Source: a virus
Taxonomy: Duplodnaviria; Caudoviricetes
DNA: 64,000 bases
Strand: one strand, 5' to 3'
Virus record (IMG/VR): IMGVR_UViG_3300028048_000042
This document shows, piece by piece, positions 9,042 through 52,569 of this stretch (the first letter of the stretch is position 1; every line of letters begins with the position of its first letter). The notes under the pieces were generated by a model. That model was not told where the DNA came from, made no database searches, and worked only from the letters and a program-made list of their open reading frames with translations. Made by a program: the position numbers and the translations under genes.

Positions 9042-10754
9042 ATGAAGAAGTTAATCGCCAAACTTGCTACCTTGCCACAATATAGTAAAAATGATAACTT
9101 TACTATGGCCTTGGTAGATTATTTATATAATGAATTAAAATTAAATGGTATTAGTGCAAGACGAGAAAAATCTTATGTAAAAGTTGCACTCAGCAATAAA
9201 TATGAAGGTAAATTTGAGCATATTATTATCGACTGTTGTGATGGTAGAATGTATTTACGTGGAAAAGATTGTAAAGATAAGCGTTGGGGAAAACTAAGCA
9301 AATTTAATCTCAAACGTAAATCTGATGCTTATGTTTGCGCAAATTACAATGCTCGTAGAATTATTAATCGAATTAAAAAGTTAGAAGATAAAATGATGGA
9401 GAAGGTCGAAATGATTCAAAAAGAAAAATTTTCACTTGCATCATCTACAAGCATTGATGATGAAGTGAATTATTATTTGTGTGATTTAGATAAAGATATT
9501 AATGAAACTGAAAAAGAACCTGTTGAGGTTGATATTATTGATTCAGACAATGATGAAATCATTGATTTAGATGCTGAAGATGAAATTATCGAATTAGATG
9601 ATGATACAGAAGCATATCCTTATTATGAATTAGATGAAAATGATGTAGTTGAAGAATATCCAATCTATGACCTCGATGATTACGATGGGGAAATCGAAGC
9701 ATATATTTTTGTCGAACCAATGGAAAAAGAGGTTATGGATGAACTTGTTCATGATTTGATGGAAGGTAACTATATTGAATTAAGTGACGAAGATGTAGTA
9801 GATGTTTATCCTTATTATGATTTGGAAGATGATGACGAAGTAGAAGCATATCCATATTATGAGTTAGACGAAAATGATGTGGATGAAGCATATACATTTG
9901 ATAACTTGTCAGAAGAAGAACAAACTGAATTACTTCATGATATGCTTGATGAAAATTATATTGACATCAAAACTGCATCAGATGAAGATAAACCATTGGA
10001 TAAATTAATGGCTCAAAAAGATGCAATTTTTGATGAATATTTTAAGAATTTTTTTCAGTCTCAGGAATTAACTAATTTTATTCAGAAACAACCACTTACT
10101 TATACAATGAGCCTTGGTGTTGAAGATTTAGTTCATGATGTAAAAGATAACTATCGTAAAGACATTGCTGATTTCGTTAAAAATAAATTGAATATTTCTG
10201 TGGACGATACAAATTTTGACAAAGACATATATGATGTTTTTAGTGATTATGTTTTCTCCAATGAGAAGAAACTTTTTGATAAATTAATCGTTACATTAAA
10301 GAACGTAGCAGGTAAAATGTTAGATGATTTTTCAAAGCAACTTGAAAATAATGATGACCAAGTTGGTAGAAAAATTGATATGGGTAATGGAGTAATTGAT
10401 ACCGTTGATATTATTAACCGTTCAAAACCATTTTTGTTTTTGGACGGAGAAGTTCATGTTGGGAAAAATAATCAGACACATTCTGATATTTTAAGAGAAC
10501 TCAACAAAACAGATAAAGAAGGTATGAGAAGACCTACAATGAATGATTTTCCTGATGATGCTGCAGTAGCATTTGGTCATATTTCAGGTAAAATTGGATT
10601 TTTGGATGGTTATACAAAAAACTGTTCAGATGAAGAAGTTGCTAAAGCTGTTGTACAATCAGGCGTTGTAAGCAAAGTTTATACTACACCTGACGGTGGT
10701 AAATATATAACAAGATTAGCAAATAATAAATTGGCTTGGATTCTTGGAGAGTGA
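9042..10754 (+). CDS. multidomain putative internal head protein (MKKL leader, acidic YPYY repeats, conserved THS/AFGH domain)
   Basis: 570 aa ORF; C-terminal domain paralogous to 42754, 51403 and 42337. Confidence 0.6.
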   Translation: MKKLIAKLATLPQYSKNDNFTMALVDYLYNELKLNGISARREKSYVKVALSNKYEGKFEHIIIDCCDGRMYLRGKDCKDKRWGKLSKFNLKRKSDAYVCANYNARRIINRIKKLEDKMMEKVEMIQKEKFSLASSTSIDDEVNYYLCDLDKDINETEKEPVEVDIIDSDNDEIIDLDAEDEIIELDDDTEAYPYYELDENDVVEEYPIYDLDDYDGEIEAYIFVEPMEKEVMDELVHDLMEGNYIELSDEDVVDVYPYYDLEDDDEVEAYPYYELDENDVDEAYTFDNLSEEEQTELLHDMLDENYIDIKTASDEDKPLDKLMAQKDAIFDEYFKNFFQSQELTNFIQKQPLTYTMSLGVEDLVHDVKDNYRKDIADFVKNKLNISVDDTNFDKDIYDVFSDYVFSNEKKLFDKLIVTLKNVAGKMLDDFSKQLENNDDQVGRKIDMGNGVIDTVDIINRSKPFLFLDGEVHVGKNNQTHSDILRELNKTDKEGMRRPTMNDFPDDAAVAFGHISGKIGFLDGYTKNCSDEEVAKAVVQSGVVSKVYTTPDGGKYITRLANNKLAWILGE

Positions 10755-10758
10755 GAAG

Positions 10759-11847
10759 ATGCTTTTAAATTCAGATAAATATTTTAAATCTCAAAAAATT
10801 CTTGATATGTTTAAAGTATCACAGTTGGATGTTCCTGATATGACAGTTCATGTAAATAGTGGTACGATTATTTATAACAATCAGGTAATTAATTTTAGCG
10901 AACAAGATAGTGAATATATTGAAGCTCCTAGAATCGGAACATGGCTTGTGGTTCTTTCTATTAATACAAAAGGACAATTGGTTTACACATATGGAGTTCA
11001 GTCTACGGAAGATAAGCAAATTCCTGTTTTGCCTGAAGATTGTTTCCATCTTTGTATTATTGAAGTTGGCGCAGATACAATGCAGATTACTAATGATATG
11101 ATTAGTGATATGCGAAATATGTATCATTTTAGTTCCACACAAGAGCAAAAATGTGTATATAAATGTGGTCTTGAAAGTGATTATTCTTTCACTGAAGAAG
11201 ACCGAAAAATGCTTAAATCTTTCTATGATAAATATGAAGACCTTCAGGCTCAAATTGATAAAATGAAACTGTTATTCAATCCTAAGAAGGAATATACAGT
11301 AATTACTGATAGCGGTCTTGAATATAAGATTCGTTTTAAAGATGATGGTACTCCATATTTTAGCAGAAATGATGCTTTTGATGATATTGACGATAACCCT
11401 GAAGAAAAGCATAAGAATTATAAATTTACATATAATAATGAAAAAATTACTGTTGTTATGGACAATCCTGAACAGTATTTGCAGTTACCTGTTAAAATTA
11501 AATCTTTTGACAATTTAAATGATGCATTGAATGTTACATTATTTGTTCGTTGTAAAGACGCAACTATTTATAGTCCAAATTTTGAACCACATTATCAGGA
11601 AGATGAATTCCAAATCAAAAATCTTGATTTGGCAAAAAGTGGGTTTTTTGAAAAATTCTCTGTAAAATTCCACGGCAGTGGAAATCATGATGTACAGTTG
11701 CTTTTGTATGATGCTGAAACAAAACAATTAATTGATAAAGCTAGTATTAGTTATGCAGTAGAATTTACTGACGAAGATTCAGAAGAAATTGGTGAAAATA
11801 CATATTCTAAAAGTTCTTCTAGGTCTTCAGGGAAAATCCATTTTTAA
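10759..11847 (+). CDS. putative fibre/appendage protein, paralog of 35334
   Basis: N-terminal approx 110 aa aligns with 35334 (PxMTVxVNxG...WxVVxxxNxxGxL...ITxDMIxDxR). Confidence 0.6.
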   Translation: MLLNSDKYFKSQKILDMFKVSQLDVPDMTVHVNSGTIIYNNQVINFSEQDSEYIEAPRIGTWLVVLSINTKGQLVYTYGVQSTEDKQIPVLPEDCFHLCIIEVGADTMQITNDMISDMRNMYHFSSTQEQKCVYKCGLESDYSFTEEDRKMLKSFYDKYEDLQAQIDKMKLLFNPKKEYTVITDSGLEYKIRFKDDGTPYFSRNDAFDDIDDNPEEKHKNYKFTYNNEKITVVMDNPEQYLQLPVKIKSFDNLNDALNVTLFVRCKDATIYSPNFEPHYQEDEFQIKNLDLAKSGFFEKFSVKFHGSGNHDVQLLLYDAETKQLIDKASISYAVEFTDEDSEEIGENTYSKSSSRSSGKIHF

Positions 11848-11854
11848 AAATATA

Positions 11855-11883
11855 TTGACAAAATAATCATGTTGTGATATAAT
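11855..11883 (+). promoter_or_regulatory. sigmaA consensus promoter
   Basis: TTGACA-17-TATAAT with extended TG. Confidence 0.85.
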
Positions 11884-11920
11884 AAAATCACAATACAGTA
11901 GTGAAAGGAAAGAAAATACA

Positions 11921-12382
11921 ATGAATATTATTGAAAAACGAATTAAGAAAGTTGCTTCCGTAGAAGGTTTTTTGAGTGGTATGAAAGAAGAGTATTCTAA
12001 TTATAATTGGGAACAGCTTGATAGCAACAACGTTGGCTTTTCTGTTTCTTATACAGGCGATGCTAATGGAGTTACTGATAAAAACGTAGCTTTGGTTATT
12101 GGCTTTGGCTTTCAGCCTGAAGACGAGCAGGAAGCGGTTGATGATGAAAATGTTCGTTTGACAATCATTGCAAAGACTTATATTGATAATGTTTTGAAAA
12201 ATACTGCTATTGAAAAAGAACTGAATGGAGTTAATGTAAAAAACATTATGACTCGTATTGAGAATTATATCACATCTGTGAATAGTGGTTGGTATAATCT
12301 CAACTTCCTTACAAAAACTGCAGCTTTTGTGAAAGAACAGTTCGGTGATGACTATACAAAGATTACATTTGCTCAGAAGTAA
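11921..12382 (+). CDS. hypothetical protein with KRIKKVAS leader
   Basis: aagga SD, 153 aa, followed by terminator. Confidence 0.7.
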   Translation: MNIIEKRIKKVASVEGFLSGMKEEYSNYNWEQLDSNNVGFSVSYTGDANGVTDKNVALVIGFGFQPEDEQEAVDDENVRLTIIAKTYIDNVLKNTAIEKELNGVNVKNIMTRIENYITSVNSGWYNLNFLTKTAAFVKEQFGDDYTKITFAQK

Positions 12383-12444
12383 AACTTTTTGAAATATTCA
12401 GAAAAAAGAATCTCAAAAATACGAGATTCTTTTTCTTTTTTGTG

Positions 12445-13024: not shown

Positions 13025-13075
13025 ATAATCAAACGAAATCAAGATAAAACTTATAAAAAAAGGAGATTGTATAAA

Positions 13076-19526: not shown

Positions 19527-21620
19527 TTATCTCCATCTATATCTTCCATGACCTGCTTTTGGCATAGTGGAGCGTTGACCTGAATTCGTAGCGAAGTTAG
19601 CCAAAACGTCAGCATCACAAACGTCATCATGATAACCTGAAGGGGCTTCAATTTTTTTATTAACAGAAAAACCTGTAGTAGTCTGTTCAAGGTCAGCCCA
19701 TTCACCAATCATACGGTGATAATAATTAACGTTATCTTTACCTGCGCATTTTGTTGGTGAATTTAAGAATCTTTCTTTTGTAGGGTAGAAGAAACGACCA
19801 TTATCAAGTTCTTGTCGCCATTTGCCGTACATGGCATTTTTCATATTCATACCTGAATTGGTATATCTATCACGAGAGTTGAAGATGATACCTTCTACAT
19901 TACGCATACCATATTCATCTTGTAAAGTTTGAACAACTGCCGCACCACAGCCTGTATAATCAGCAAAGATTTTTGAACATTTAAATCTAGGATTTGCGCC
20001 ACCTAAAAGTCCTGCTATATAGTACATTTGTTCAGGATAAGTAGCATCTTTAAATTCTTTACCAAATACTTTATTTTTAGTACCATCACGATTAATACGA
20101 AGGACAGAGATTTGGGTAGCATCACCTTCAGGATTAGCACCTGCAAAGTCGATACCTGCCACATAATGTTCACCAATAATACCGTGGTCTAGCCAATCGA
20201 ATTCACCTGAACGCATTTTATCTACTTGAACTGAAGTAAGGAATTTACCTGCGCCATCAATGAATTCAAGCATGTACTGAGTACGGAAGTCTTCAATATC
20301 CAAGTTTCCTTCTGTCCAAACTTCAGGATTATTTGGGAACATTTCTTCTTTTAGAGCTTTAGGCATTGCCTGCTCTACAATAAACTTTGAATACGGACGA
20401 ACGATACCTGTTTTGGGGTCAGGAAGATAAATAGCACCCAAAGCCCAAGATTGAGCACATTGAGTCCAATCACGTTTAATAACAGTCCATTTATTACTAG
20501 CTTTACCTTCTACACAGTCATAGAAATGATTTCTAGTTTTAGGAGTACCAATTTTGACCAACTTAGCGTTTGTAGCACCGCCCATAGGTACAATTCGCTC
20601 TGACCAAGTATAATCAGAAACTTTTTGAGCCTCATCCAATACGATAACATCAAATGTCAAACCTTCGATATTGGATTGGTCAGAAGCAGAAACGGCACAT
20701 ACATAAGAACCATTATCTAATTCGACTTTATCTTTTGTTATTTTGACAATTTTGTGATTTAATTTATCTTCGTTCATTTGGAAGAATGTAGATAAACGTC
20801 CAATAGAAACTTCTGCCTGTTGCAAACGTGGTGTAAAAATACCAATGCGCATACAAGGGAAATTGTCAATTAAGAATCCACAGAATGAAGAAATAGATTC
20901 AGTGTTATGTACTACGGTATAGTCTTCAAGCATGAACAATTTATCTTCACTATCTAAGGTAAAACCGTAGTAATTTGCTTTTCTCTTTTTTACAACAATG
21001 AATCTATATTTTGTGAAGCTAGTTAAATCTTTAGACATTCTCCATCCAAAAAGATTTTCTCTTGTTTCTTTTTTTAATTTTAAATAATCTTTTATATTGA
21101 TATTTACAATATGATTATCAAAAGTCATCAATGATAAAATGTGAGACTCGTTAACTGTGTATTCAGAGTTATCAAAACCTTGAATTTTATACATAGTTTC
21201 TTTGCCACGCCCTAAATCAATAACTGTTGTGATATTACCAAATGGAGAAATTAATTTATCACCAACTTTGATGTCTTCAACTTTTTTTATTGATTTATCA
21301 GCCATCAAAATTTTTGTACCTTTGGCAAAGCATTTACCTGCCTGACGAGACATCATGCCTGCAACCATTTTTAATTTTGGATTGCAGACAGCACGAATAA
21401 GTGCTGTTTGATTCTCATGTAATTTTTGAAATTTTATAGGTAAATGACCACGTAATACATTTTCCACGTATTCAATAGGGTCAATTCGATTTAAAAATTT
21501 ATGATACATGAAATCATCTAATGGCATACCGTTAATTGTATTGTCTTGGCTTACTAAAGAGATTTCATCTTTGATTGCAGATACATTGTCTTGTATATGA
21601 ATCAATGAATTATTTTCCAT
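19527..21620 (-). CDS. terL: terminase large subunit containing a mini-intein
   Basis: SRQAGK|T Walker A, VLDEAQ Walker B, AGIDFA RNase-H nuclease motif, DYTGCG and HDDVCDA; start MENNSL after aaggag SD. Confidence 0.93.
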   Translation of the reverse strand: MENNSLIHIQDNVSAIKDEISLVSQDNTINGMPLDDFMYHKFLNRIDPIEYVENVLRGHLPIKFQKLHENQTALIRAVCNPKLKMVAGMMSRQAGKCFAKGTKILMADKSIKKVEDIKVGDKLISPFGNITTVIDLGRGKETMYKIQGFDNSEYTVNESHILSLMTFDNHIVNINIKDYLKLKKETRENLFGWRMSKDLTSFTKYRFIVVKKRKANYYGFTLDSEDKLFMLEDYTVVHNTESISSFCGFLIDNFPCMRIGIFTPRLQQAEVSIGRLSTFFQMNEDKLNHKIVKITKDKVELDNGSYVCAVSASDQSNIEGLTFDVIVLDEAQKVSDYTWSERIVPMGGATNAKLVKIGTPKTRNHFYDCVEGKASNKWTVIKRDWTQCAQSWALGAIYLPDPKTGIVRPYSKFIVEQAMPKALKEEMFPNNPEVWTEGNLDIEDFRTQYMLEFIDGAGKFLTSVQVDKMRSGEFDWLDHGIIGEHYVAGIDFAGANPEGDATQISVLRINRDGTKNKVFGKEFKDATYPEQMYYIAGLLGGANPRFKCSKIFADYTGCGAAVVQTLQDEYGMRNVEGIIFNSRDRYTNSGMNMKNAMYGKWRQELDNGRFFYPTKERFLNSPTKCAGKDNVNYYHRMIGEWADLEQTTTGFSVNKKIEAPSGYHDDVCDADVLANFATNSGQRSTMPKAGHGRYRWR
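20904..21332 (-). mobile_element. mini-intein (143 aa, no homing endonuclease) in the terminase Walker A motif
   Basis: begins CFAKGT, has block B TVNESH, ends VVHN followed by T. Confidence 0.92.
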
Positions 21621-21716
21621 ATAATATTGCTCTCCTTTTGTAAAAGGTTTTAACATAAAAAATATAACAGTTTCTATATTTTTTATGTGGTATAATGAAA
21701 AAAAATTCATGGAGGT

Positions 21717-22133
21717 TTGTATATGATAAGTATATATCAAAAATTCAAAGAAACAATGAAAGAATTATCGAAAAAAGCAGAAATTACTTGGATAAAAAAT
21801 AATTATACTCCTTTAAATGGTGTAGGAGTAAAAGGAACATGGAATATCAACGTAACAGGAAATGCAGGTAGTGCAGATGTTGTCTCATGGGATGGTATTG
21901 AAAATAAACCAACATCTTTTACTCCTGTGCCACATAATCATGATAGCTCTTATCCTTCAAAAATAGGTAATGGGGCAAGCGGAACTTGGAATATTAATAT
22001 TACAGGAAATGCCAAAACAGCCAATAGTGCAAATAATGTATCTTGGGAAAATGTATCAAGTAAACCAAAACTTGTAATTGTAGAATCGTTTGATAAAGAA
22101 AATGGAGTGCTGAAATTAAAAAGTTTAAATTGA
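21717..22133 (+). CDS. tail-fibre-like repeat protein
   Basis: two GTWNINxTGNA...VSWxxxxxKP repeats typical of tail fibres. Confidence 0.7.
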   Translation: MYMISIYQKFKETMKELSKKAEITWIKNNYTPLNGVGVKGTWNINVTGNAGSADVVSWDGIENKPTSFTPVPHNHDSSYPSKIGNGASGTWNINITGNAKTANSANNVSWENVSSKPKLVIVESFDKENGVLKLKSLN

Positions 22134-24866: not shown

Positions 24867-25487
24867 GTGAAATTCGTGATTAAACGAGTTGCAGAAAGAC
24901 TTGATGACAGCACAATGAAACGAATCGCATCCGCAATCAAAGAAAAGCAGAACAAGTTGTTTTCTGTTGTGAAATCTGAAGCAGAAGCAAAAGAGATTGT
25001 GACCGATTTGAAAGTGAATGGTTATCAAGCAAATTATCAAAAGGTCGGTAGTTTGTATAAGGTTTTCTACTGTACACAGATTCCTCAGTACAAAGATACT
25101 CCTTTGGCAAACCAAGAAAGTTCAGCATATGCCAATTTTGCAAAAAGCGGTTTAACACAAGTTTTAAATAAACCTGCAAAATGTGCATTTGATGAAGGAA
25201 GTATATGGCACGTAAAAGAAATTGATGGTGTTCCATATATTGTAAAAGAAGTTGCAGAAGATAATGAAGATGTAGTTATTCGAAAAAAAGCAACTGCAAG
25301 TGCTAAAGAACAGTACAAAGGCGAATTGGACGTTTCGATTGTACAGTTATTGGCAAAAAAGAATATAATAATTTCGGCAAAGCTCGTAGATGAAATCAAA
25401 GATAAGGTTTTATCTAAAGCATTAAAAATGCCATCAATGCAGAAACTCATTGAAGAATACGCAACAAAGGAGTTCAATAATGGCTGA
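24867..25487 (+). CDS. hypothetical protein with KRVA/MKRIAS leader, probable virion protein
   Basis: 206 aa ORF heading a putative late operon. Confidence 0.6.
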   Translation: MKFVIKRVAERLDDSTMKRIASAIKEKQNKLFSVVKSEAEAKEIVTDLKVNGYQANYQKVGSLYKVFYCTQIPQYKDTPLANQESSAYANFAKSGLTQVLNKPAKCAFDEGSIWHVKEIDGVPYIVKEVAEDNEDVVIRKKATASAKEQYKGELDVSIVQLLAKKNIIISAKLVDEIKDKVLSKALKMPSMQKLIEEYATKEFNNG

Positions 25488-26747: not shown

Positions 26748-29700
26748 ATGTTTGATACAGTTGATGGGAAACTTTTAACCAATACGGAAGTGCAAATTCC
26801 TGATTGGATTAAGGAAACCAAATTTAAAAAACCTGTTAAGGCTAAGTTAGATGTTAGCTTTAATACAAATATTATTAATCGTACTCATGCAGTTGCAGAA
26901 CGTAGTTTTGACGATTTGGCAAATGTTCGTGAACTTAAATATACGTTAAGTGCAAAACAGTTGCAGGTTTTTGCTATGAATGATTTAGCAAAATTCCTTC
27001 GTCAGTATCGTTATGAAGCAACTGCTAGTTCGAAAGAAAACGCAGTAGATATTAATGTAATGTTTGTAAACAATCCTTTTGAATATACATTTACTTATAG
27101 TGATGTAAATGGTAAAGTGGTTGCAAACAAAACATTCAAAACAAAATTTGACGGTAAGGTTAATGAATACCCATATAGTTATGCAGGTATTGAAGATTCT
27201 ATTGAAGACAGTAAAAATATTGACCGAAAAAAATCTGTAAAAGTAGCAAATAAAAATGTTAAATACAGCATTATTTCTAAGTATGATATTGTACAACGTT
27301 GCAATAATTATCTTGGTGAAGCTAAAAAAATTATTGAAAAACATTTAAATGAAGGTAATATTGTTGCTGTAGGAAGTAATGAGTATGCTACTGTTTATGA
27401 TACAAACCTTTTATTCCCTGATTTGCGTGAAGAATTTCAGGGTGAAGTATCTCATATGGCTGATTTTGTTGATAATCATGTTGCAACAGCAAGCTATGAA
27501 AATAAAACAGCTAATCGTTTAGCAATGGAATCTTGCAAAGTTCTTGGTGAGGTTTTCAATGTAGAAAAAATTGCTGAAGCTAATCGTGAAGGAGATAATC
27601 TCTATGTAACAGCTTATGTTACACATAATAATGTTCGTGATAAGATTAGCGTTGCTATGAGCATTGAAAATGAACGTGTTGGTAAAATTAAATGCGTTGA
27701 AGATTCTGATTCTAATCGTTACAGTGTGGCGCAAATTCTCGCTAAGTTTGGCGAAAACGATAAGAAAATTGTTGCTTATTTGAATGGTAAAGATAAGCAC
27801 GTTGCAGGCGGTTATATCTATTCTGCAAAAGCTGTAAAGGCTCAGTTGGGCAAAGTAATGAGCCATGATAATATTAATAAAATGTTGAATCTTTGGGTAG
27901 AAAATGGATTTGCTGAAAAAGTAAATACAACTACATACGCAAGTAGAATGAGCTTGGCAGAAATGGTTCAACGCACAAATGCAGAATTCTTGTCTGATGA
28001 TAAGATTGAAGAAATTCTTCATGCTTCTGCTACATTTGGTAATGATGCTCATTTCCATAAGTATTTCCAAAAAGATAATGACACACGTAACAAAGAAGCT
28101 GTTGCTGTTAACCAAGCATATAAGGGTAACGTAGAATATATGCTCGGTAAATATTTCAATAACATTAACGTTCATATGTTATCCAAAGATAAATTCGTTG
28201 TTGAATTTATGAATGAAAATGGTAAAAAGCAAAAAGTTTCTGCAAGTCTAAATAATGGTAATATCTTGTTCAAAGTTGGTAACAAAAATGTTACTATGGA
28301 TAAGATGAATCAGATGTTCAAAACAAGTGAATTACTTAAAGCTTATGCTAAAGACGTAGATGAAGATTTGTCTAAAGTTCATAAGATGGTAATTTCCAAG
28401 AAACAGTTTGCAGACAATGTTAAAGATTATCTAACAGAAGAACAGACAAATGAATTGATTGATAATCTTGTTTCTGAATATAAATTGGTAAAAGTCGCTA
28501 GTGATAAATACGTTAGTGAATATCAATTCAAAGATTTATTGAAGAGTTTTGTTGGGGATTTTGACAAAAACCTAAAACAGGAAAATATTGCAAAAGCAAA
28601 TCGTACCACTTTGAAAGAATTGGTTCGTAATTATATTACTGATGGTGACACACGTAATCAGATTGCTCTTTCTGAGAAAGAAGCTAAGTTTGCAAATAAC
28701 TACAAAAAAGTTGCAAAATATCTAAACAACTTCAAATTAAATATGGTATCTGATGATATGGGTGTTATTAACTTCTGCACAGATAATAATGAATGGGGAA
28801 AGCGCAAAATTGCCGCTAAATTTGCCGAGAATGGCGTTCAATGTAAGGTTGGCAGTAAATGGGTAGGTATTGAATTTGTCCCTGCTCTATTTAAGTCTAG
28901 CGCAGTTTTAAAGGCATATGTGAAGGACACGAAAGCTTCAGTTGATAATCATAGTATTGTTATTTCTAAGAGACAGTTCGTAGATAAAATGAGTGATTAT
29001 GTAACAGAAGATGATATTAATGCTTTTATTAAACTACTCACTACAAACAAAAAACTGACACAGATTGCAAGTAATCTATATGTATCTGACAATTCTTTCG
29101 AAGAATTACTCAGCGAATATGAAGGTAATGTAGATGAAGGTATTAAGACTGACAATCTAAATAAAAAGAATCGTTTAGCAGACAAAGAAGTGGAAAGTGA
29201 TTACATTGAAGATGGAGATACACGTAAACCACAAAAAATGTTAAGTGAATCTGAATTCAAGGCACAGTTTGAACATGCATTACCATCACACATTGCATGT
29301 AAAGAATTTAAAGACATCTCTATTAATGAAACTGCCGCAAAATGCAAAGCAGTATTGTTTAATAAACATAATGGTTTATCTGTACTTGGTTCTTATGACA
29401 TTGCAGTTACAAATGGTCAATTAGATAAAGCATTTGGTAAGAATGCAGATGCAATTTTTGATTTAACTACAATCAATAAGGTTTTCAATAAGTATAATCA
29501 CGAGAAGAGAGAAGCCAAAAAGAGAATTATTTCTAAACGTTATTTGAAGGAAAAATTAAATAAGATTGCTTACACAGGTGATTTAGATACTGTATTTGAT
29601 AATTGGGAAAAGAAAGGTTTAGCAGAACGTATTGATGGAAATACATATGCTACTGAATATACAGTAGATGAATTACTTGCAAAGAGTAATATTTTAGCTT

Positions 29701-29999
29701 ATAAAGAAGAAGAAATTCAGAATAAATTTGATAAAGCTAGTGCAATCCGTCAGATTATTCCAAAGCAGTATCATGTACAGGATAGCGATTCTAAATCTTT
29801 AGCAAATGTAGCTGATTGCAAAACTGATGATGAAATTCAGAAAGTAAAAGCATATTATAAAGATAAATTAAATCAGATGGTTGAAGACAATGTTGTTACA
29901 GCTAGTCGTGTAGAAAAACTTTATAAGAAGTTAGATGTTATCAAAGAAGTAGTTGAATTATCTGATTTTGGTAAAGAGCTTGAAAGATATATGAGATAA
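26748..29999 (+). CDS. large protein with five internal approx 185-aa repeats, putative internal virion protein
   Basis: 1083 aa; recurring ISK...Y(A/V)(S/T)...D-x-D-T-R modules. Confidence 0.65.
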   Translation: MFDTVDGKLLTNTEVQIPDWIKETKFKKPVKAKLDVSFNTNIINRTHAVAERSFDDLANVRELKYTLSAKQLQVFAMNDLAKFLRQYRYEATASSKENAVDINVMFVNNPFEYTFTYSDVNGKVVANKTFKTKFDGKVNEYPYSYAGIEDSIEDSKNIDRKKSVKVANKNVKYSIISKYDIVQRCNNYLGEAKKIIEKHLNEGNIVAVGSNEYATVYDTNLLFPDLREEFQGEVSHMADFVDNHVATASYENKTANRLAMESCKVLGEVFNVEKIAEANREGDNLYVTAYVTHNNVRDKISVAMSIENERVGKIKCVEDSDSNRYSVAQILAKFGENDKKIVAYLNGKDKHVAGGYIYSAKAVKAQLGKVMSHDNINKMLNLWVENGFAEKVNTTTYASRMSLAEMVQRTNAEFLSDDKIEEILHASATFGNDAHFHKYFQKDNDTRNKEAVAVNQAYKGNVEYMLGKYFNNINVHMLSKDKFVVEFMNENGKKQKVSASLNNGNILFKVGNKNVTMDKMNQMFKTSELLKAYAKDVDEDLSKVHKMVISKKQFADNVKDYLTEEQTNELIDNLVSEYKLVKVASDKYVSEYQFKDLLKSFVGDFDKNLKQENIAKANRTTLKELVRNYITDGDTRNQIALSEKEAKFANNYKKVAKYLNNFKLNMVSDDMGVINFCTDNNEWGKRKIAAKFAENGVQCKVGSKWVGIEFVPALFKSSAVLKAYVKDTKASVDNHSIVISKRQFVDKMSDYVTEDDINAFIKLLTTNKKLTQIASNLYVSDNSFEELLSEYEGNVDEGIKTDNLNKKNRLADKEVESDYIEDGDTRKPQKMLSESEFKAQFEHALPSHIACKEFKDISINETAAKCKAVLFNKHNGLSVLGSYDIAVTNGQLDKAFGKNADAIFDLTTINKVFNKYNHEKREAKKRIISKRYLKEKLNKIAYTGDLDTVFDNWEKKGLAERIDGNTYATEYTVDELLAKSNILAYKEEEIQNKFDKASAIRQIIPKQYHVQDSDSKSLANVADCKTDDEIQKVKAYYKDKLNQMVEDNVVTASRVEKLYKKLDVIKEVVELSDFGKELERYMR

Positions 30000-32878: not shown

Positions 32879-34399
32879 ATGGTGAATATTTTGAAAATTA
32901 CTAAACAGAGTAATGGTCTGCCTGAATGGTTGTCCACGTTGGCAGACGTATTTAAGGAAAAGAAAAACGCCAAAGCAGAAATGCAGGTTGGCAACCTTCC
33001 AACAGTAGATTGGAACGATAACACATTTTATGTAGATGTTGTTGATGGTGAAGTAATTCTTTATAATCAGTATGGTAATGAAGTTCTTAAACTTATGGCT
33101 AATGAACTTGGTAAGACTGATGATGAAGATGTAGTAAGTGCTGTTGATAAATATTTGAATGAGCACTATGTAACTGCAAGCGTCAACTCTGAGGGTTCAA
33201 CAACTTTTGAAAAGAAAGTTATTGCTGAAGAGGGAGATATTGACGTTGACTTGGATGACAACGATACGAATCCTAATGATGAAATGGATATGGTCTTTGA
33301 GCAGGAACTTGAAAAAGTTGCTAGTATGGAAGACGGTATGCCTGAGGATGAAGGTTCAGGTGATTCAGAAGGTACTGATGGTGCTGAACAGCAGACAGCT
33401 ACAGCTTCTGTAGAAGAAGTTGAAGAAAACGTTGACGAAGAGCCTGTTGTAGAGGAAACTCCTGTAACAGAACCTGTGGCTTCTGATGAAGAACCTGCAA
33501 TTGCAACTGACCCTGTTGTTACTGAACAGCCTGAAGAAAAAGCAGGCGAACCTTCTCAGGGCGTTGAAGATGAAGCAGGAGAAATCTCTGAAGGTATTGA
33601 TGACGTAGCTACAAAAGGTGATGCAACACCTACTGATGATTTTGGTTTTGATGATGTAGATTCTGAACCTGTTGAAGAAGGTTGCGAATGCGAAGAATGT
33701 GCTTGTGAGGGTTGTGAAGAAGAATCTAAAGACAAAGAAGGTTTTGTAAGCCTTGCTTCTTATAATCGTCTTGTTGCACGTTTGAATGCTCTTGAAAAAA
33801 CAGTTAAGGCTTTTCAGGCAGAACAGAGAGCATATACAGACCCAGGTGATGTTTATGACCTCAATTGTCAGGAAGAAGAAGTAAAGAACTTTCAGAAAAG
33901 TGCTGCTGAAACACAGGCAGTAGTTGATGCAGAGCATGAATTGGATATGTCTAAGATGTCTGACCGTGCAAAGCTCAATGAAAATTTTGTAAATGAGGTT
34001 ATTAATAACAGTGCAGAACAGACAGAAGCAGTAAATGAAGTTGTTGCTCCTGCCGAAGTTCCTTCTGAAACTAATGAAGAAGTAACTGAAGAACCTGTTG
34101 CTACTGAAGAAGCAGTTGAGGGTGAAGTTGTAGAAGAACCAACAGAAGAAACATCTGAGGAAGCTACAGAAGAACCTGCAACTGATGAAGAAATTCCTGT
34201 TGAGGAAAATGCAACAGAAGCTGATTATGTTGCCCTTGATGAAGAACAGTTGAATAAATTTGCTAAAAAAATTTGTCCTTTCTGCGGTAAAGAACATTTG
34301 ACACCTGTTGATGAAGTAGGTGGTGTTATTGGTGTTCGTTGTGATGATTGCGGTAAGGAATTTGCCGTTAGTGATGACGAAGTATATACAAAAGAATAA
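32879..34399 (+). CDS. highly acidic protein with C-terminal zinc ribbon, putative scaffold/core protein
   Basis: E/D/P-rich tracts; CPFC...CDDC; coiled-coil YNRLVARLNALEK. Confidence 0.6.
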   Translation: MVNILKITKQSNGLPEWLSTLADVFKEKKNAKAEMQVGNLPTVDWNDNTFYVDVVDGEVILYNQYGNEVLKLMANELGKTDDEDVVSAVDKYLNEHYVTASVNSEGSTTFEKKVIAEEGDIDVDLDDNDTNPNDEMDMVFEQELEKVASMEDGMPEDEGSGDSEGTDGAEQQTATASVEEVEENVDEEPVVEETPVTEPVASDEEPAIATDPVVTEQPEEKAGEPSQGVEDEAGEISEGIDDVATKGDATPTDDFGFDDVDSEPVEEGCECEECACEGCEEESKDKEGFVSLASYNRLVARLNALEKTVKAFQAEQRAYTDPGDVYDLNCQEEEVKNFQKSAAETQAVVDAEHELDMSKMSDRAKLNENFVNEVINNSAEQTEAVNEVVAPAEVPSETNEEVTEEPVATEEAVEGEVVEEPTEETSEEATEEPATDEEIPVEENATEADYVALDEEQLNKFAKKICPFCGKEHLTPVDEVGGVIGVRCDDCGKEFAVSDDEVYTKE

Positions 34400-37922: not shown

Positions 37923-39680
37923 ATGAAAAGAAACCATAGAACTGCTGTTGCTAATAGAACAAATAATTTGGCTATGAATAGCATTATTGATAAAAGTGAT
38001 TTGCCTAAGAGTATTCAGCGACAAATGAAGCGCAATTCAAAAATGGCAAAAGCTTCAGGTGTAGATATTAGAATGTCAAACCCTGTATTTTATCAGCCAC
38101 TATTTCAAAGCACAAATATGTTGTTGCCTAGAGATAGGCGTGAAAGAAATGAGTGGTGTCGCCACTTTTATCGAACAGAACCTATCATTGCAACGGCATT
38201 AGATTTACATACAGAATTTCCAATATCTGATTTGAATAATGTGTGCTCGGATAGCTATATCAGGAAGTTTTTTGATTATATGGCATTTGAAAAGCTAGAT
38301 TTAGTCAATCTTTTGTTGGATATTGGTCTTGAATATTGGAAAATTGGTGATGTTTTCCCATTTGGTCAGTTTAATGAATCTGAAGGTATGTGGGAAAAGT
38401 TCACGTTGTTAAATCCTGATTTTGTCAATATTAATTCTTCTATTTTTGCAGGTCAGGAACAGATTGAAATGATTCCTGATGATACCATGACAAGTATTAT
38501 TGCAAATGGCCCTTCAGGTTCATTAGGTGATTTGTATAGACAATTCCCTGAAGATATTATTATGCAGGTTAGACAAGGTAAAAATATTGCGTTGGATAAT
38601 CGTTTAGTATCTCATATTACCCATAAAGCTAGTTCCTATGAAACTTGGGGAACACCATTAATGATGCGTTGTTTTAAAACGTTGATTTATAAAGATAAAT
38701 TGAGACAAGCACAGGATGCTATTGCAAATAGACATATTATGCCTTTGCGTGTAGCAAAAATTGGTACACCTGGTGAGCCTATGCCATCACAGGCTGATAT
38801 TGATGATTTTCGCGATACATTGCTTGAAGGTGAGGGCGACCCAAACTATTTCCTTGTTTATCATTATGGTTTGTCTTTTGAGTATGTTGGTTCAACAGGA
38901 AAAATCCTTCCTTTGAATACAGAATTTGATTTTATTCAGCAAGAACTTATGACAGGTCTTGGTATTACACAGGCAATGCTTAATGGTGATGGTTCGGGTT
39001 ATACACAAGCACAGGTTGGTGCAGAAGCGTTAGCTAGACGTTATGCGGCTTATCGTTTGAGGTTGGAACGTTGGATTAGAGAACATGTTTATAAACCTGT
39101 TGCAGAAACACAGGGTTTTTATAAACCGAAAAATGGTTCAGGTGCTATTGCTACAAAATATATGACAGCTAGTGAAAGAAAACGTGCTGTAGCAAATAAA
39201 GAGATGGATTTGATTGTTCCGAAACTTTTGTGGCAGAAGCAAGATTTGACTTCAAATCAGACAGCAATGACATTTATTCAGAATTTACGTGATAAGGGAT
39301 TAATCTCCATGACTACAGTATTACCGTTGTTGTCGCTTGACCCTGAAACAGAAAAACGAAATCTTGAAGCAGAACGTGGTACTGTATTTGATGAAAATGC
39401 ACCTAAAACAGGGCCTTTGCCAAAAGAAGGTCAATTGCTTAATGATGAATTTGAGACAGGTTATACTATGCGTGAAATTTCACCTGAAAGTCAATTTGAA
39501 GAGGTAGATTACACATTTGATGAAAGTGGAAATGCTGTTTCTACAGGTAATAATCCTGCTGACTTTGGGTTAGAAAGACACGATTCAATTGGTCAGAATT
39601 CAGCAAAACAAGCTTTAGATGTAAATAAATTTTTTAATAAGAAAGAACCTGTGGATAAGATTTTAATTAAAAAGAAATGA
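37923..39680 (+). CDS. portal protein
   Basis: 585 aa; WCRHFYRTEPII..ALDLHTEFP, LLNPD and WGTP motifs; located upstream of protease and capsid genes. Confidence 0.8.
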   Translation: MKRNHRTAVANRTNNLAMNSIIDKSDLPKSIQRQMKRNSKMAKASGVDIRMSNPVFYQPLFQSTNMLLPRDRRERNEWCRHFYRTEPIIATALDLHTEFPISDLNNVCSDSYIRKFFDYMAFEKLDLVNLLLDIGLEYWKIGDVFPFGQFNESEGMWEKFTLLNPDFVNINSSIFAGQEQIEMIPDDTMTSIIANGPSGSLGDLYRQFPEDIIMQVRQGKNIALDNRLVSHITHKASSYETWGTPLMMRCFKTLIYKDKLRQAQDAIANRHIMPLRVAKIGTPGEPMPSQADIDDFRDTLLEGEGDPNYFLVYHYGLSFEYVGSTGKILPLNTEFDFIQQELMTGLGITQAMLNGDGSGYTQAQVGAEALARRYAAYRLRLERWIREHVYKPVAETQGFYKPKNGSGAIATKYMTASERKRAVANKEMDLIVPKLLWQKQDLTSNQTAMTFIQNLRDKGLISMTTVLPLLSLDPETEKRNLEAERGTVFDENAPKTGPLPKEGQLLNDEFETGYTMREISPESQFEEVDYTFDESGNAVSTGNNPADFGLERHDSIGQNSAKQALDVNKFFNKKEPVDKILIKKK

Positions 39681-41100: not shown

Positions 41101-41403
41101 ATGTTAAAAAGACTCTGTAATCATGTTTCTCCATTTACACATAATGTAGTTACTGATATTGTAAAGAAAAGTTCTAGCAATGAGATTGCTAGTAGTTATG
41201 CTCATGTGTTAGCAAAACAAATTTTGGCAGACTTGCCATTAATTCCGACAGGACATTTGGTTTATAATTTGACTCAGCAGATTCAGTTTGGTTTGCTTGA
41301 TTCTGTTTGTCCTTTGGAAGATGTAAAAAATCATTGGCAGGAATGCTTAGATGTTGCAGGTCAGTATTTAAAAGATATGGGTATTTGGTGTGAAGCGAAA
41401 TGA
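41101..41403 (+). CDS. hypothetical protein with MLKRL leader
   Basis: aaggag SD, 100 aa. Confidence 0.65.
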   Translation: MLKRLCNHVSPFTHNVVTDIVKKSSSNEIASSYAHVLAKQILADLPLIPTGHLVYNLTQQIQFGLLDSVCPLEDVKNHWQECLDVAGQYLKDMGIWCEAK

Positions 41404-42323
41404 TTATTATTAACAATACAGAAGGTAGGATTGAAGATTACGTTGAAAGTAATGATGGTGTCGTTTTATTTGGTAATAAAAAAGTTGACATTAACGTATT
41501 GAAAGATAGTCCTACGTTAAATAAAGTTGGGAAGAAAATTGCTACAGCGAAGTTGGTTAAGTTAGTCCCTAAAGAAAAAGATTTTTTGTATATTCGAAAT
41601 CGTGCAGTTTCAGCAGGTAATGTTATTGAAAAAGAAGATGGCACATGTGATTTAGTTCCGATTGAGGAATTTCACAATAATTTTGGCAAATATGCTTTTA
41701 TTTGCCGTGGTGCAAATGATAACGGTGATTTCTTTTCTCATGAAGAATTAGAGAAAAAATATAAGACCTTTATTGGTAAGGCTGTTTTCTATGAGCATGA
41801 TGATGATAACATTAATAAAGCTCGTGGTATTATTCTTGATTCCATTTATAATACAAATGGTTATTACGTTGAATTATTTGAAGCAATTGACGCAAAAGCT
41901 TATCCACAGTTAGCAACTGCTGTAAAAAATGGTCATTTGACAGATACTTCTATGGGATGCTATATTGGAAAAGCAATTTGTTCCATTTGTGGCAATGTTT
42001 CCAAAGAAGTAAATCCTGAAGAGGGAATGGATGACCGTTGCGAACACATTAAACGTTATAAAGGTTTAACTTATAATGGTTTGCCTGTTTTTGAAGATAA
42101 TCGTGATGTTGTTTTCTTTGAAGATAGTATCGTTGGTACAGGTGCGGATTCGCAAGCAAAGATTATGGAACGTGTTGCAAGCAAGAAAAATCAATCAGGT
42201 ATTATTCTTCCTCAGTATTATCAGAAGAAAAACGATGTTTTCGCAAAAGAACAGAATCAGCGTACATTCCAAGGTCGTGTGCACAATCTTGAAAATAAAT
42301 TCAGTGAATTGCCTTGGTCATAA
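41400..42323 (+). CDS. prohead (capsid maturation) protease
   Basis: NDNGDFF..EEL, EH...ARG.ILD, TSMGC and CSICGN...CEHI motifs of herpes/HK97-fold phage proteases. Confidence 0.8.
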   Translation: MIIINNTEGRIEDYVESNDGVVLFGNKKVDINVLKDSPTLNKVGKKIATAKLVKLVPKEKDFLYIRNRAVSAGNVIEKEDGTCDLVPIEEFHNNFGKYAFICRGANDNGDFFSHEELEKKYKTFIGKAVFYEHDDDNINKARGIILDSIYNTNGYYVELFEAIDAKAYPQLATAVKNGHLTDTSMGCYIGKAICSICGNVSKEVNPEEGMDDRCEHIKRYKGLTYNGLPVFEDNRDVVFFEDSIVGTGADSQAKIMERVASKKNQSGIILPQYYQKKNDVFAKEQNQRTFQGRVHNLENKFSELPWS

Positions 42324-42336
42324 AAAAAGGAGCAGA

Positions 42337-42660
42337 TTAATCTGCTCCTTTTTCATATATAAGTTCTAATTGTGTTTGAGATGTGCGTAAAAAGATTCTA
42401 TTTGCACCTTGTTTTTTAAATGCATTAATAATGTCATCTTTCATCATATTGTTAAGTATACGTAAATTTTCAACAATGAAGTCGTTATTAATCTGATGAA
42501 AAAAACAAAAATGATATTGGAAGGGGTTGTAATAAAATTTTCTTAGTGCAAGAGTATGTGTTTTTCCTTTGTATATTTTCCCTTTTGAAAATACACCTGC
42601 ACAATCTCTTGTATTTAAATCAAGAATATCAATATTGAATTCTTTTTGTATTGTTGTCAT
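42337..42660 (-). CDS. stand-alone member of the THS/AFGH domain family
   Basis: DLNTRD...GKTHT...FFH aligns with the shared domain of 9042, 42754 and 51403; gaggag SD. Confidence 0.6.
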   Translation of the reverse strand: MTTIQKEFNIDILDLNTRDCAGVFSKGKIYKGKTHTLALRKFYYNPFQYHFCFFHQINNDFIVENLRILNNMMKDDIINAFKKQGANRIFLRTSQTQLELIYEKGAD

Positions 42661-42685: not shown

Positions 42686-42714
42686 ATTTTAGCATAGAAG
42701 ATAAAATTTGTCAA
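42686..42714 (-). promoter_or_regulatory. sigmaA-type promoter for the 42660 gene
   Basis: minus-strand TTGACA-17-TAAAAT with extended TG. Confidence 0.75.
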
Positions 42715-42753: not shown

Positions 42754-43821
42754 ATGAATAAGAGATTGATTGCGGATAGAGCAGATATTCTTAAAAATGG
42801 ATATGAAGATTTAGTTGATGTAATTAATGATTCTTCAGAAGATGCAGTTAAAGAAGATTTTTTCAGTGTTATTAAAAAGAATTTCCCTGCAAAAACTTTT
42901 GTAGAAGCTACTTTAAAGCAGGGTGCGGCAACGCAGAATGAAATCAATAAAGAAACACTGATGAATAAGTTACCACAGTATTTGAAAGATACAGCGCATT
43001 TATATTATCAGAAATTCTACAAAAAACGTTTAATTGATGACGAAATCGCTTGTGAACCAAAAGATAAAATCTTTAAGCAAGCTGTTGAAAAGTTTTCTTC
43101 GGAAATTGTATTGAACGAAGAGTTGGGTAAAATGGTAGAAGATGCCATTAATGACGAAAGTGTTCAAGAACGTTATTTTAAACATGAAGAAAAGCCAAAA
43201 GAAAAAGAAAAATCAAAGGACAAAAAGCAAAACAATGAAGAGTTATCTTATGAGGAAGAAATTGAACAAACTGTCAAAAAACGAGGGGTTATACCATTTG
43301 GTGTTTTAAAAGATTTAGATGAACCTGTTGGAACAACAGGCATTCCAATTATGCCTGTTGATGTTGGGCGTAGAGATTATCCTTTTATTGTTATGGACAA
43401 TTCTATTTTCGTTAAAGGAACGTCAAAAGATAGCCATTCAACTGCATTGCATGAATGGGCAGAAAAACATAAAAATGACAAAACGGAATTAGGAAAAAAA
43501 CTTAAAGAAATTTATGATAAAAATGATGATGATTGGTATCGTGAGAATGCAATAGCTGCTCTTGCAAAAGCAGGAGTGACTAAATTAGCTTTCGGTCACG
43601 TTCGTGAAGATATGGCTTTTGTTGATACATGTGATGGATGTACAGCCGATGATGTAAAAAGTGTTGTAAAAAGTGGCACAGGAGTTTCCAAGGTTTATGA
43701 TGTAACAAAACATATGTCTTACGGTGCTTGGAGTGGAGTTCGTGTAGCTAGATTAATTCCTAATTACAATAAAGAAATGCATAATTCGGCTATTGAAGAA
43801 ATGAAAAAATTTAAGCATTAA
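42754..43821 (+). CDS. putative internal head protein (MNKRLIA leader, THS/AFGH domain)
   Basis: paralogous C-terminal domain ending in RVA. Confidence 0.6.
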   Translation: MNKRLIADRADILKNGYEDLVDVINDSSEDAVKEDFFSVIKKNFPAKTFVEATLKQGAATQNEINKETLMNKLPQYLKDTAHLYYQKFYKKRLIDDEIACEPKDKIFKQAVEKFSSEIVLNEELGKMVEDAINDESVQERYFKHEEKPKEKEKSKDKKQNNEELSYEEEIEQTVKKRGVIPFGVLKDLDEPVGTTGIPIMPVDVGRRDYPFIVMDNSIFVKGTSKDSHSTALHEWAEKHKNDKTELGKKLKEIYDKNDDDWYRENAIAALAKAGVTKLAFGHVREDMAFVDTCDGCTADDVKSVVKSGTGVSKVYDVTKHMSYGAWSGVRVARLIPNYNKEMHNSAIEEMKKFKH

Positions 43822-43915: not shown

Positions 43916-44404
43916 ATGAAACGATTAATCGCAGATAATAGCAAATCAATTGAACAGATGATTAAGAGTACGGCTGTTGAAGGTCGTGAGATTTTGAAAT
44001 CTTTGGAACAATTTAAATTTGAATTGGAACAATGTGTAAAGATTTCGGTAAATGAAGATATTAATAGTAAAATACATCAACATTATGATATGGTAGATAA
44101 ATTAATGTCAGGTTTATATACTATTTGTTATGATATGGAAAACGTTGATTTAGTGCCTGTTTATGATAATGACCAAATTGATATGAGTAATCAAGATTCT
44201 CCTGATAGTGATAATGCAGGTTATAAATTGGGTGAGGAATATCCACTACCTGAAGATGAAAACGCTGACGAAGAAACTAATAATGAATCTTCAGAAAATG
44301 AATCTAGTGACGAAGAATCATCAGATACAGAGACAGATGAAAATGATTCTGAAAATGAAAGTGAGGAAAAAGGAGAAGAAAGTTCCGACACTGAAGAAGA
44401 GTAA
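43916..44404 (+). CDS. hypothetical protein with MKRLIA leader and acidic tail
   Basis: 162 aa. Confidence 0.65.
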   Translation: MKRLIADNSKSIEQMIKSTAVEGREILKSLEQFKFELEQCVKISVNEDINSKIHQHYDMVDKLMSGLYTICYDMENVDLVPVYDNDQIDMSNQDSPDSDNAGYKLGEEYPLPEDENADEETNNESSENESSDEESSDTETDENDSENESEEKGEESSDTEEE

Positions 44405-47052: not shown

Positions 47053-47898
47053 ATGGCTATGACTCAAGAAGAACAGGAATTCCTTATCTCCGAAGCATTG
47101 GAGACAAGTGAAGGTCGTGCGGCATTGGCTTCCTCAATGGCTAACCCAATCCGTACATCATTGGATTATCAGGGTATCGCTCGTAAATTGCTCGTAGTAG
47201 ATGCTCTCCCACAGGGTGCTCTCCCTGTTTATGACCGTGATGTTGATGCGAAAGCATTCATCATCTCTAAGCGTGGTCAAGCTCCTGACCAGCTCATTGA
47301 AGGCGAACGTGTTCAGGTTCCAACCTTTGAGATTGTTTCTCACCCACTCGTTCGTTTCTCTCAGATTAAGGAGCGTCGTTTCAACATCATTGACCGTGCA
47401 CAGCAGCGTGCTAAGTCTGATATTATGGCTGTTGAGGATGAAACTGTATTCTCCCTTATCGACAGTGCAGCTTCTGCTGTTAATACTGTAACGGTTTCTA
47501 AAGGTGCTCTTACTCGTGATGCTCTTACAACTGCTTTTAAAGAAGTTGAAAAGCATGACCTCCCTGTTACAAAGATTGTTATGAACGCTCAGGCTTTTGC
47601 TGACATCCGTAAATGGGGTCAGAATGAGTTTGACCCTGTTACTCAGCACGAAGTTCTTCAGACTGGTAACTTCGGTCATCTTTGGACAGCAGAAATTCTT
47701 ATTTCTAAGAAAGTTCCTGCAAATACAGTCTATGTTATGTCCGACCCTGAGTTCGTAGGCGTTATGCCTGTTCGTCAGGATATTCAGGTAATTCCTGCTG
47801 ACGAGCCTGAAAAACTTCGTGTAGGTTGGGTTGTATACGAGGAAATCGGTATGTCTGTACTCAATGCACAGGCAGTTGCTAAGATTGAAATTCAGTAA
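47053..47898 (+). CDS. major capsid protein (HK97 fold)
   Basis: LASSMANPIR..LDYQGIARK.LVVD.LPQGALPVYDRD signature; highly biased codon usage; strong aggagg SD; terminator follows. Confidence 0.88.
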   Translation: MAMTQEEQEFLISEALETSEGRAALASSMANPIRTSLDYQGIARKLLVVDALPQGALPVYDRDVDAKAFIISKRGQAPDQLIEGERVQVPTFEIVSHPLVRFSQIKERRFNIIDRAQQRAKSDIMAVEDETVFSLIDSAASAVNTVTVSKGALTRDALTTAFKEVEKHDLPVTKIVMNAQAFADIRKWGQNEFDPVTQHEVLQTGNFGHLWTAEILISKKVPANTVYVMSDPEFVGVMPVRQDIQVIPADEPEKLRVGWVVYEEIGMSVLNAQAVAKIEIQ

Positions 47899-49259: not shown

Positions 49260-49321
49260 TATCTCTGAGAAAATATGAATAGCTAAGAACAATCTGTATA
49301 TTTAATATATAGAAAAATTTA

Positions 49322-49876: not shown

Positions 49877-49936
49877 ATTTTTTACAAAAGACATGATTTA
49901 TTTCATGTCTTTTTTTATACTTTATTTAGAAAGGAT

Positions 49937-51228: not shown

Positions 51229-51229
51229 T

Positions 51230-51415
51230 ATGGAAACTGCAATAGCTTTACTTTTAGTTTTTGCTGTTTTTGTAACAGCAGTAAACTTTTTGGTTGAAGT
51301 GGTTATGCCGATTGCAATTTTTGTTTTTCTCTTTTATGCAATTGGTGGAGTTGATTATATTCGAGAATTGATTAAATATTGCAAAGCAAGGTGGGGTTAT
51401 AAATGGAAAGATTAA
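51230..51415 (+). CDS. small membrane protein
   Basis: hydrophobic 61-aa ORF. Confidence 0.55.
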   Translation: METAIALLLVFAVFVTAVNFLVEVVMPIAIFVFLFYAIGGVDYIRELIKYCKARWGYKWKD

Positions 51416-52569
51416 AAAAAGTATTGGCAGAGGAAGAAACAGAAAACGAAGAGCAAGAAATTGTTTGTGAAGATTTGAATGATATTAAACAGTATGTTGA
51501 AGATATTGATGGCTACGCATGTTCACCATATGTATTTACAGAATCAGGAATGGAAGAATACCTTGAATCTTTATTTCCTATTGATGTATCTGAAATATAT
51601 GATGATGGTGCGGAAACTTTTATTGAAAAATTAGAAGAATATACTTTTGAAGATTATTGTAATGATATTGATACCGAATCATTGAAAAGTGAATATGAAG
51701 ATAATTGGGACAGTTATGTTGCTGATGATGATTTGAATTATGATGTGTATTCGTTTGATTGGGACAATATCACAAGTGATTTGTGGGAACTTGCTTCAGA
51801 AAATGACGAGTTGGAAGATTTGTATGATTCTGTTGTTGAAAATTATATAGCAAAAGTTCCAAACACCGATTCTTCTGAACGTGTTGATGATGACGAGGAT
51901 AATTATGAGGTAAAATCTCTTGATGAAGTTGCTGAATCTGATGATAAAGTTGGTGATGTTTTCTCTTTGGAAGATTCAATTGATTATGATACAAGAGATA
52001 ATGCGTTCATTTATATTGATGGAGAGATTGTTGAAAGTAATAACGGAGAAACACATTCGCAATTATTACAGAGATATTTAGAAGAGAATGATAAAAATGT
52101 TCCTCAAGATTTGCGTGACCGTGACCAATATCGCGCTTCACGACCAAGTGTTAAGCAGACAAAAAAAATGACAAATGCAGATGATGTAGCATTTGGTCAT
52201 ATTGTTGATGATTGTGCTTTTATTGAGGTTATTTCAGGCGGTGCTACGATTGATGATGTCGCAAATGCTTGTAAAAAAGACTATTCAAAAGTATATCAAT
52301 ATGACGGAGATAATATCAAACGTGTAGCTAGTAGTAAGAAAATGGAAGATGTAATTCGTGGATTTGGTTTTCGTCCATTTGTTGTAGAAAATTTAGGTAC
52401 AGCATTAATGGGTAAGTACAGCATGATTACTATGGAAAATGGCTATCCACGTATTGATGTGGCTTTAAATGCTGACGTTGAAAATATTGACCAAGAAGAA
52501 TTTGATGATGAATTTGCAAAAGCTCTTATGCTTTGTAAGACATTGGGTAAATTGAAGTTGTATAAATGA
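51403..52569 (+). CDS. putative internal head protein (MERL leader, acidic domain, THS/AFGH domain)
   Basis: paralogous domain ending in KRVAS followed by an extra domain. Confidence 0.6.
   Translation: MERLKKVLAEEETENEEQEIVCEDLNDIKQYVEDIDGYACSPYVFTESGMEEYLESLFPIDVSEIYDDGAETFIEKLEEYTFEDYCNDIDTESLKSEYEDNWDSYVADDDLNYDVYSFDWDNITSDLWELASENDELEDLYDSVVENYIAKVPNTDSSERVDDDEDNYEVKSLDEVAESDDKVGDVFSLEDSIDYDTRDNAFIYIDGEIVESNNGETHSQLLQRYLEENDKNVPQDLRDRDQYRASRPSVKQTKKMTNADDVAFGHIVDDCAFIEVISGGATIDDVANACKKDYSKVYQYDGDNIKRVASSKKMEDVIRGFGFRPFVVENLGTALMGKYSMITMENGYPRIDVALNADVENIDQEEFDDEFAKALMLCKTLGKLKLYK

Follow-up and report, generated by a model that had tools for sequence, protein, structure and literature searches.

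The window examined here is a 64,000-nucleotide (nt) stretch of viral DNA (Duplodnaviria; Caudoviricetes; IMG/VR record IMGVR_UViG_3300028048_000042), in which four dispersed genes encode copies of one protein domain. Three of them are long and lie on the plus strand. Copy 1 (9042..10754; 570 amino acids, aa) begins with the leader MKKLIAKLA (9042-9068), continues through a conserved N-terminal region and then hyper-acidic repeats, and carries the domain at its C-terminus (approximately 10350-10745), where it ends in ITRLA. Copy 2 (42754..43821; 355 aa), placed between the genes for the prohead protease and a scaffold-like protein, has the leader MNKRLIAD (42754-42777) and a domain extending over approximately 43300-43758, with the end VRVA. 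In copy 3 (51403..52569; 388 aa) the leader MERLKKVLAEE (51403-51435) is followed by an acidic region and by the domain (approximately 51910-52341), which ends in IKRVA. Copy 4 (42337..42660, minus strand) is a compact stand-alone domain of 107 aa with a basic isoelectric point (pI 9.1).

A hidden Markov model (HMM), built from 170 domains of database homologs and containing no window sequence, was run against the 561 stop-to-stop frames of the window. Exactly four open reading frames (ORFs) were matched, i.e. copy 3 (E-value 3.8e-48), copy 1 (4e-35), copy 2 (8.3e-31) and copy 4 (2.3e-9), and the best of the remaining frames scored 0.25. The expanded paralogous family proposed in a preliminary description of this DNA was thus recovered with an external model. 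Pairwise BLASTP comparisons of the three long copies, which share the C-terminal domain at 27-32% identity, gave E-values of 4e-7, 1e-9 and 4e-8. The domain comprises about 140 residues and begins at a DDxVGD motif; the cores delimited in the preliminary description were correctly placed, but the true start lies approximately 20 residues before them. The N-terminal regions, described there as acidic in all three long copies, are strongly so in copy 1 (net charge -60) and copy 3 (-49), whereas that of copy 2 is only mildly acidic (-6).

Copy 4 aligned with the family profile over 82 columns (hhalign; probability 93.6%, E-value 2.1e-7) as two blocks, the variable insert (profile positions approximately 61-85) and the terminal R-x-A being absent. 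Its three orthologs, each of 107 aa, are 95%, 85% and 64% identical to it. This divergent copy carries no leader, and the sigmaA promoter previously attributed to it could be located: a predicted sigma-70-type promoter on the minus strand (42686..42714), composed of TTGACA, a 17-nt spacer and a TG-extended TAAAAT (TTGACA-17-TGcTAAAAT), agrees at 11/12 positions. The ribosome-binding site is GAGGAG and the ATG start codon is at 42660. A hairpin read directly from the sequence, GGAGCAGAT-TA-ATCTGCTCC with A/T runs on either side (42322..42348), abuts the stop codon of the protease gene and is likely a two-way terminator between that gene and copy 4; with a loop of only 2 nt, it was missed by the automated scan.

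Many positions of the domain are strongly conserved (residues are numbered according to the translation of window positions 51922-52362). Among the 170 domains, D20 is retained in 94%, R24 in 97%, H44 in 99%, G91 in 93% and H92 in 86%; in the C-terminal part, K122 is retained in 94%, Y124 in 96%, R133 in 94% and A135 in 96%. R73 is present in 78%, and position 101 is occupied by Glu or Asp in 94%. The conservation of an Arg and two His residues, first noted on the window copies, therefore extends across the family (R24, H44 and H92). The motifs of the domain are DDxVGD, RD, DG, TH, RP, AFGH, FIE, KVY and R-[LVI]-A. The median pI is 4.7 for the domain and 4.4 for the N-terminal regions.

In the four window proteins, as in 150 homologs, no match to a family of Pfam-A, PHROGs v4, NCBIfam 20 or PADLOC 2 extends over the domain, and Foldseek found nothing in the PDB at E≤1e-3; the domain is indeed unrecognised, as the preliminary description had it. 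A PDB sequence-profile search gave chance matches only (E≥0.5), and a search of the ESM Atlas yielded no usable match. AlphaFold modelled the copy 3 domain (m4adcc70f39a7) with a predicted local distance difference test score (pLDDT) of 88.9 and a predicted template modelling score (pTM) of 0.83, and copy 4 with a pLDDT of 81.7. The order of strands and helices in copy 4 is that of the copy 3 model minus the insert, an agreement that is not fully independent, since the alignment behind the copy 4 model included the family. Judged by these models, this is a new alpha/beta domain without a clear solved counterpart. The top neighbour of both models in BFVD is A0A8S5LCW2, an uncharacterised 116-aa protein of Myoviridae sp. 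ctULz28 (Foldseek probability 1.00; template modelling score 0.45-0.55; 13-14% identity; E approximately 3e-3 to 6e-3). This protein probably has the same fold in a compact form; being unannotated, it adds no function.

From 1.84 billion clusters formed at 50% identity, a profile of the three long copies retrieved 225 representatives (E≤1e-3), of which 127 reached E≤1e-10. All carriers of the domain found so far are metagenomic or jumbo-phage contigs, the metagenome matches being located on short contigs. A single domain is present in 132 of 154 family proteins, and two to four in the other 22. It is found almost always at the extreme C-terminus (a median of 2 residues past the profile end), behind approximately 130 variable residues. 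Three different members, used as tblastn queries against 50,697 GenBank phage records, returned no match, and no relative turned up when 185,579 prokaryote species genomes were scanned with the pattern of one sub-family.

On sequence grounds the window can be assigned to a phage-G-like jumbo phage. Its portal protein shares 66.6% identity with gp14 of Bacillus phage G, and its prohead protease (41400..42323, plus strand) aligns with phage G gp19 over the full length. No DNA-level relative of the head region was found in the GenBank phage records (megablast). Two near-complete IMG/VR relatives, G002 (281 kb, 98% complete) and G004 (416 kb, 99% complete), are syntenic with parts of the window, and a moose-derived relative of phage G was described in 2025 (PMC12484599). 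The domain profile matched ten times in each of the two IMG/VR genomes, partly in tandem gene arrays. In G002 the arrays are a set of three genes (69.7-72.2 kb) and a cluster (225-227 kb), and G004 has two clusters, at approximately 104-107.6 kb and 391-394 kb. The whole record of phage G gave no match at E≤1.

Orthologs of copy 1 are found in L001 (7267-8982) and in G002, adjoining the same downstream gene in both; the counterpart in G004 has no domain match, and two multi-domain genes lie just upstream of it. Copy 2 has the orthologs P0014, P0020 and P0028. It is not present at the protease/scaffold-like position in G002 or phage G, where the two head genes directly adjoin each other, while copies 4 and 2 intervene in the window; compared in this way, copies 4 and 2 are an insertion into this gene pair. 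The copy 3 locus is occupied in G002 by three tandem paralogs, between the orthologs of the genes at 50791 and 52649. Because their number and position vary among relatives, and phage G has no detectable copy, the domain genes are accessory and mobile within the phage-G-like lineage and not core head genes. The distribution is best explained if the family is an accessory one, specific to the lineage of phage-G-like jumbo phages represented in gut and rumen metagenomes.

The N-terminal leader is shared by otherwise unrelated proteins of the phage. The motif [KRNSE]-R-[LI]-x-x, counted inside the first 9 residues, is present in 8 of the 81 window genes, to which MKKLIAK of copy 1 can be added, and in 0.2% of internal 9-residue windows. 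The leader is thus a real feature of these proteins, as the preliminary description had recognised in calling it KRL-type. The leader-bearing genes, copy 1 included, start at 9042, 24915, 30023, 32225, 32593, 42754, 43916, 51403 and 52649. They include copies 2 and 3, the gene for the scaffold-like protein (43916) and a gene for an enzyme resembling nucleoside 2-deoxyribosyltransferase (NDT; 52649), as well as a number of small ORFs located upstream of the portal gene. The same leader occurs on gp5, 9, 10, 12, 13, 17 and 20 of the phage G head module (L002), and it was identified in 35 of 154 family members against a background of 2.4%. The window portal likewise begins with MKR.

A second short motif, [KRTE][KR][LIV]A, was counted 22 times among the 81 window proteins, compared with 7.5 ± 2.7 times in shuffled sequences (an approximately three-fold excess). 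Examples include the products of 24867-25487, 11921-12382, 32879-34399 (aa 145), 26748-29999 (three sites) and 41400-42323 (aa 257). The motif lies at the ends of leaders and closes each of the three long domain copies of the window (ITRLA, VRVA and IKRVA), and the family consensus at the domain end is hydrophobic-[TK]-R-[LVI]-A-[KRSN]. It is also located, in the conserved form E[RK]VASK, directly behind the catalytic core of the protease itself (AKIMERVASKK in the window, AKILEKVASKS in phage G). In some multi-domain homologs a fresh leader stands directly behind the domain end (..KRLA|MKRLKKAD, ..VRLA|MKRLGAQE and ..EKIA|NKRLIKSK). We consider [KRTE][KR][LIV]A, with its terminal Ala, a candidate site of cleavage by the prohead protease, and its placement fits protease-delimited cassettes.

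These features can be combined into a model, which we put forward tentatively as the most likely reading, though somewhat short of probable, of the domain proteins as accessory head cargo. The three long proteins would be docked into the core of the assembling prohead by the short basic leader, M-x-[KR]-R-L-x-[AK], in the manner of the capsid-targeting sequence (CTS) of phage T4. The prohead protease would then trim them at [KR]-hydrophobic-Ala, at the ends of the leader and of the long domain copies, so that the compact C-terminal domain would be retained in the head and would enter the cell alongside the DNA. Instead of coating DNA, it would there hold or process a single specific ligand, anionic and bearing phosphate (a nucleotide or the end of a nucleic acid), and the untagged copy 4, expressed from a host-type promoter, would supply the trimmed domain in the cytoplasm. 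We infer packaging, cleavage and ligand alike. A specific anionic ligand appears most likely because the domain is acidic overall yet has invariant Arg, His, Lys and Tyr residues. Virion delivery of the long copies is plausible in view of the analogy with the T4 CTS, the leader on phage G head-module proteins and the position of copy 2 between the protease and scaffold-like genes. Several observations weigh against this model. The cleavage motif is derived from sequence statistics only, and the R-x-A, being part of the last predicted strand, may have a purely structural role. The tail past A135 has a median length of 7 residues, so that a cut there would often remove almost nothing. Approximately three-quarters of the family members lack the leader, and no recurrent fusion of the domain to a known enzyme or binding domain was found in the 150 homologs.

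The tandem arrays, the multi-domain chains and the position of the domain at the extreme C-terminus would also suit a purely architectural module, which oligomerises or anchors proteins inside the head and whose charged residues make inter-subunit or metal-stabilising contacts without any ligand or catalysis. Jumbo phages typically have multi-paralog families of internal head proteins (PMC10052503), no enzyme-like fold emerged from the structure searches, and members without a leader could enter the head bound to tagged ones. We nevertheless judge this explanation unlikely, since the genes are not core ones (absent from phage G, and varying in number and position between close relatives) and copy 4 has its own host-type promoter; moreover, His, Arg, Lys and Tyr residues that are 94-99% invariant in paralogs only about 30% identical would be unusual for a scaffold-type module. 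The lack of a leader in most family members, the small stand-alone copy 4 with its sigma-70-type promoter, and a variability of copy number and location typical of counter-defence genes point in another direction, i.e. to cytoplasmic anti-defence or takeover proteins that are not packaged at all, such as the nucleotide-signal sponge or hydrolase proposed in the preliminary description, in which case the leader would have some other role. The conserved basic and aromatic residues would suit a phosphate or nucleotide ligand here as well. The long copies, however, lie in late/head gene strings, with copy 2 inside the head operon, and the scaffold-like protein bears the same leader, which makes this explanation rather unlikely in our view. 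No likeness in sequence or fold to a solved sponge or phosphodiesterase was found. Nucleotide-signal sponges were absent from the results of the PDB profile search, from those of Foldseek against the PDB and from the listed matches of VIA-align, which does not exclude such a fold; a sponge or hydrolase function of the domain against defence is neither supported nor excluded.

Comparison of the models with 48,161 chains in VIA-align raised the question of a nuclease. The copy 4 model gave 11 matches to tRNA-splicing endonucleases, in addition to Hjc and other restriction-endonuclease-like proteins, at Z 3.1-4.7, and the copy 3 model matched splicing endonucleases at Z 2.4-3.1; in both cases the matches were weak and did not exceed those to unrelated proteins. 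The conserved set of His, Tyr, Lys and Arg resembles the residues of such RNases, so that a metal-independent nuclease cutting host RNA or DNA after injection could be envisaged. This appears very unlikely, because every Z value is at most 5, i.e. under the level that the tool calls common for unrelated folds, and because gelsolin-type domains (the best match of copy 3, Z 3.6) and antizyme (the best of copy 4, Z 5.0) rank equally high or higher. The empty Foldseek search of the PDB speaks against it too, and the conserved residues do not seem to come in the Tyr-His-Lys order of EndA. The likeness to endonucleases is thus no more than a lead. A bolder extension of the head cargo model would treat the KRL leader, the domain and the R-hydrophobic-Ala end as one protease-delimited cassette, with which phage-G-like jumbo phages would load their heads, partly from polyproteins; the cargo would consist of numerous, diversified versions of an enzyme or ligand trap with a new fold, which would be injected and act on host nucleic acid or on immune nucleotide signals. 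We consider this a speculative and quite improbable version, although if true it would constitute a new class of virion-delivered effector.

The closest parallel to the head cargo model is provided by the internal proteins IPI, IPII and IPIII and the Alt protein of T4, which likewise carry a short N-terminal leader on unrelated, non-essential proteins and are found with a prohead protease of the T4/HK97 type. The T4 targeting sequence of approximately 10 residues brings foreign proteins into the prohead core too (PMC9958956). Alt is an enzyme with a leader (PMC9958956), and the NDT-like product of 52649 is also a leader-bearing enzyme. A further point in common is that the leader described here ends with hydrophobic-Ala-acidic residues (LIAD, LVAE and VLAEE). 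It differs from the T4 CTS in being basic (KRL), and no sequence similarity to the T4 internal proteins or Alt was detected by Pfam, PHROG or tblastn against the GenBank phage records. In addition, the T4 cargoes are mutually unrelated, whereas a common C-terminal domain is present here, where packaging and cleavage are presumed.

Expanded paralogs in jumbo phages, as seen here, are also known from the inner-body and ejection families of phiKZ and SPN3US. In phiKZ-like phages the prohead protease removes N-terminal propeptides, and the C-terminal parts stay in the head (PMC10052503). The phage lineage is a different one (phage-G-like), there is no PHROG or Pfam overlap, and the domain genes are dispensable between close relatives; furthermore, the phiKZ-like cleavage motif ends in Glu, whereas the candidate motif ends in Ala. 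The sponges Tad1, Tad2, Acb2 and Acb4 are small phage proteins that grip phosphate-rich ligands through Arg, His and Tyr. Copy 4 resembles sponge genes in size and expression signals, but no sequence or fold match to them was found, and in most family members the domain forms the C-terminal part of a protein of 250-400 aa.

Jumbo phages contain large sets of head-internal proteins, the functions of which are almost all unknown. The present family lends itself to structure determination and ligand screening, as it is well delimited and has a confident model, enzyme-like invariant residues and a natural 107-aa version. The leader together with the [KR]-hydrophobic-Ala motif constitutes a concrete, testable proposal for the addressing and processing of head cargo in phage-G-like phages; since phage G is cultivable, the leader part could be tested there directly.

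Some further features of the window and its relatives complete the picture. The window also encodes the large terminase (19527-21740, minus strand), the portal (37923-39680), the major capsid protein (47053-47898) and a helicase (56998-58743), and the G+C content of the window is 31.8%, i.e. that of AT-rich, phage-like DNA. The scaffold-like acidic protein (43916..44404, plus strand; leader MKRLIAD) is a homolog of phage G gp20. The leader-bearing gene 52649-53821, directly downstream of copy 3, encodes the NDT-like domain (Pfam PF15891, Nuc_deoxyri_tr2, E 1.5e-12), and the same neighbourhood is kept in G002. Behind IKRVA the copy 3 protein has a C-terminal extension of 75 aa (52342-52566), which is kept in its closest orthologs (P0001-P0005); P0006 and P0007 do not have an extension of this type and stop right behind the domain. 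In the G004 genome two adjacent multi-domain genes (MKRLSKHNAWSRD... and MKKLKKISIHNVSNRD..., L040 9351-11710) have their first domain within approximately 6 residues of the leader. A late-promoter-like box, TATAYTTT..TTTAGW (9006, 37882, 43885 and 49916), was identified 20-30 nt upstream of the genes at 9042, 37923, 43916 and 49937 (four occurrences against 0.6 expected for a pattern defined post hoc); it is given no weight here, as G002 and G004 showed no such box at the orthologous sites. The large terminase, 737 aa in the window, is considerably longer in two relatives, with 1197 aa in L001 (10171-13764) and 1569 aa in L035 (2847-7556), and the extra segments resemble intein or homing-endonuclease insertions.

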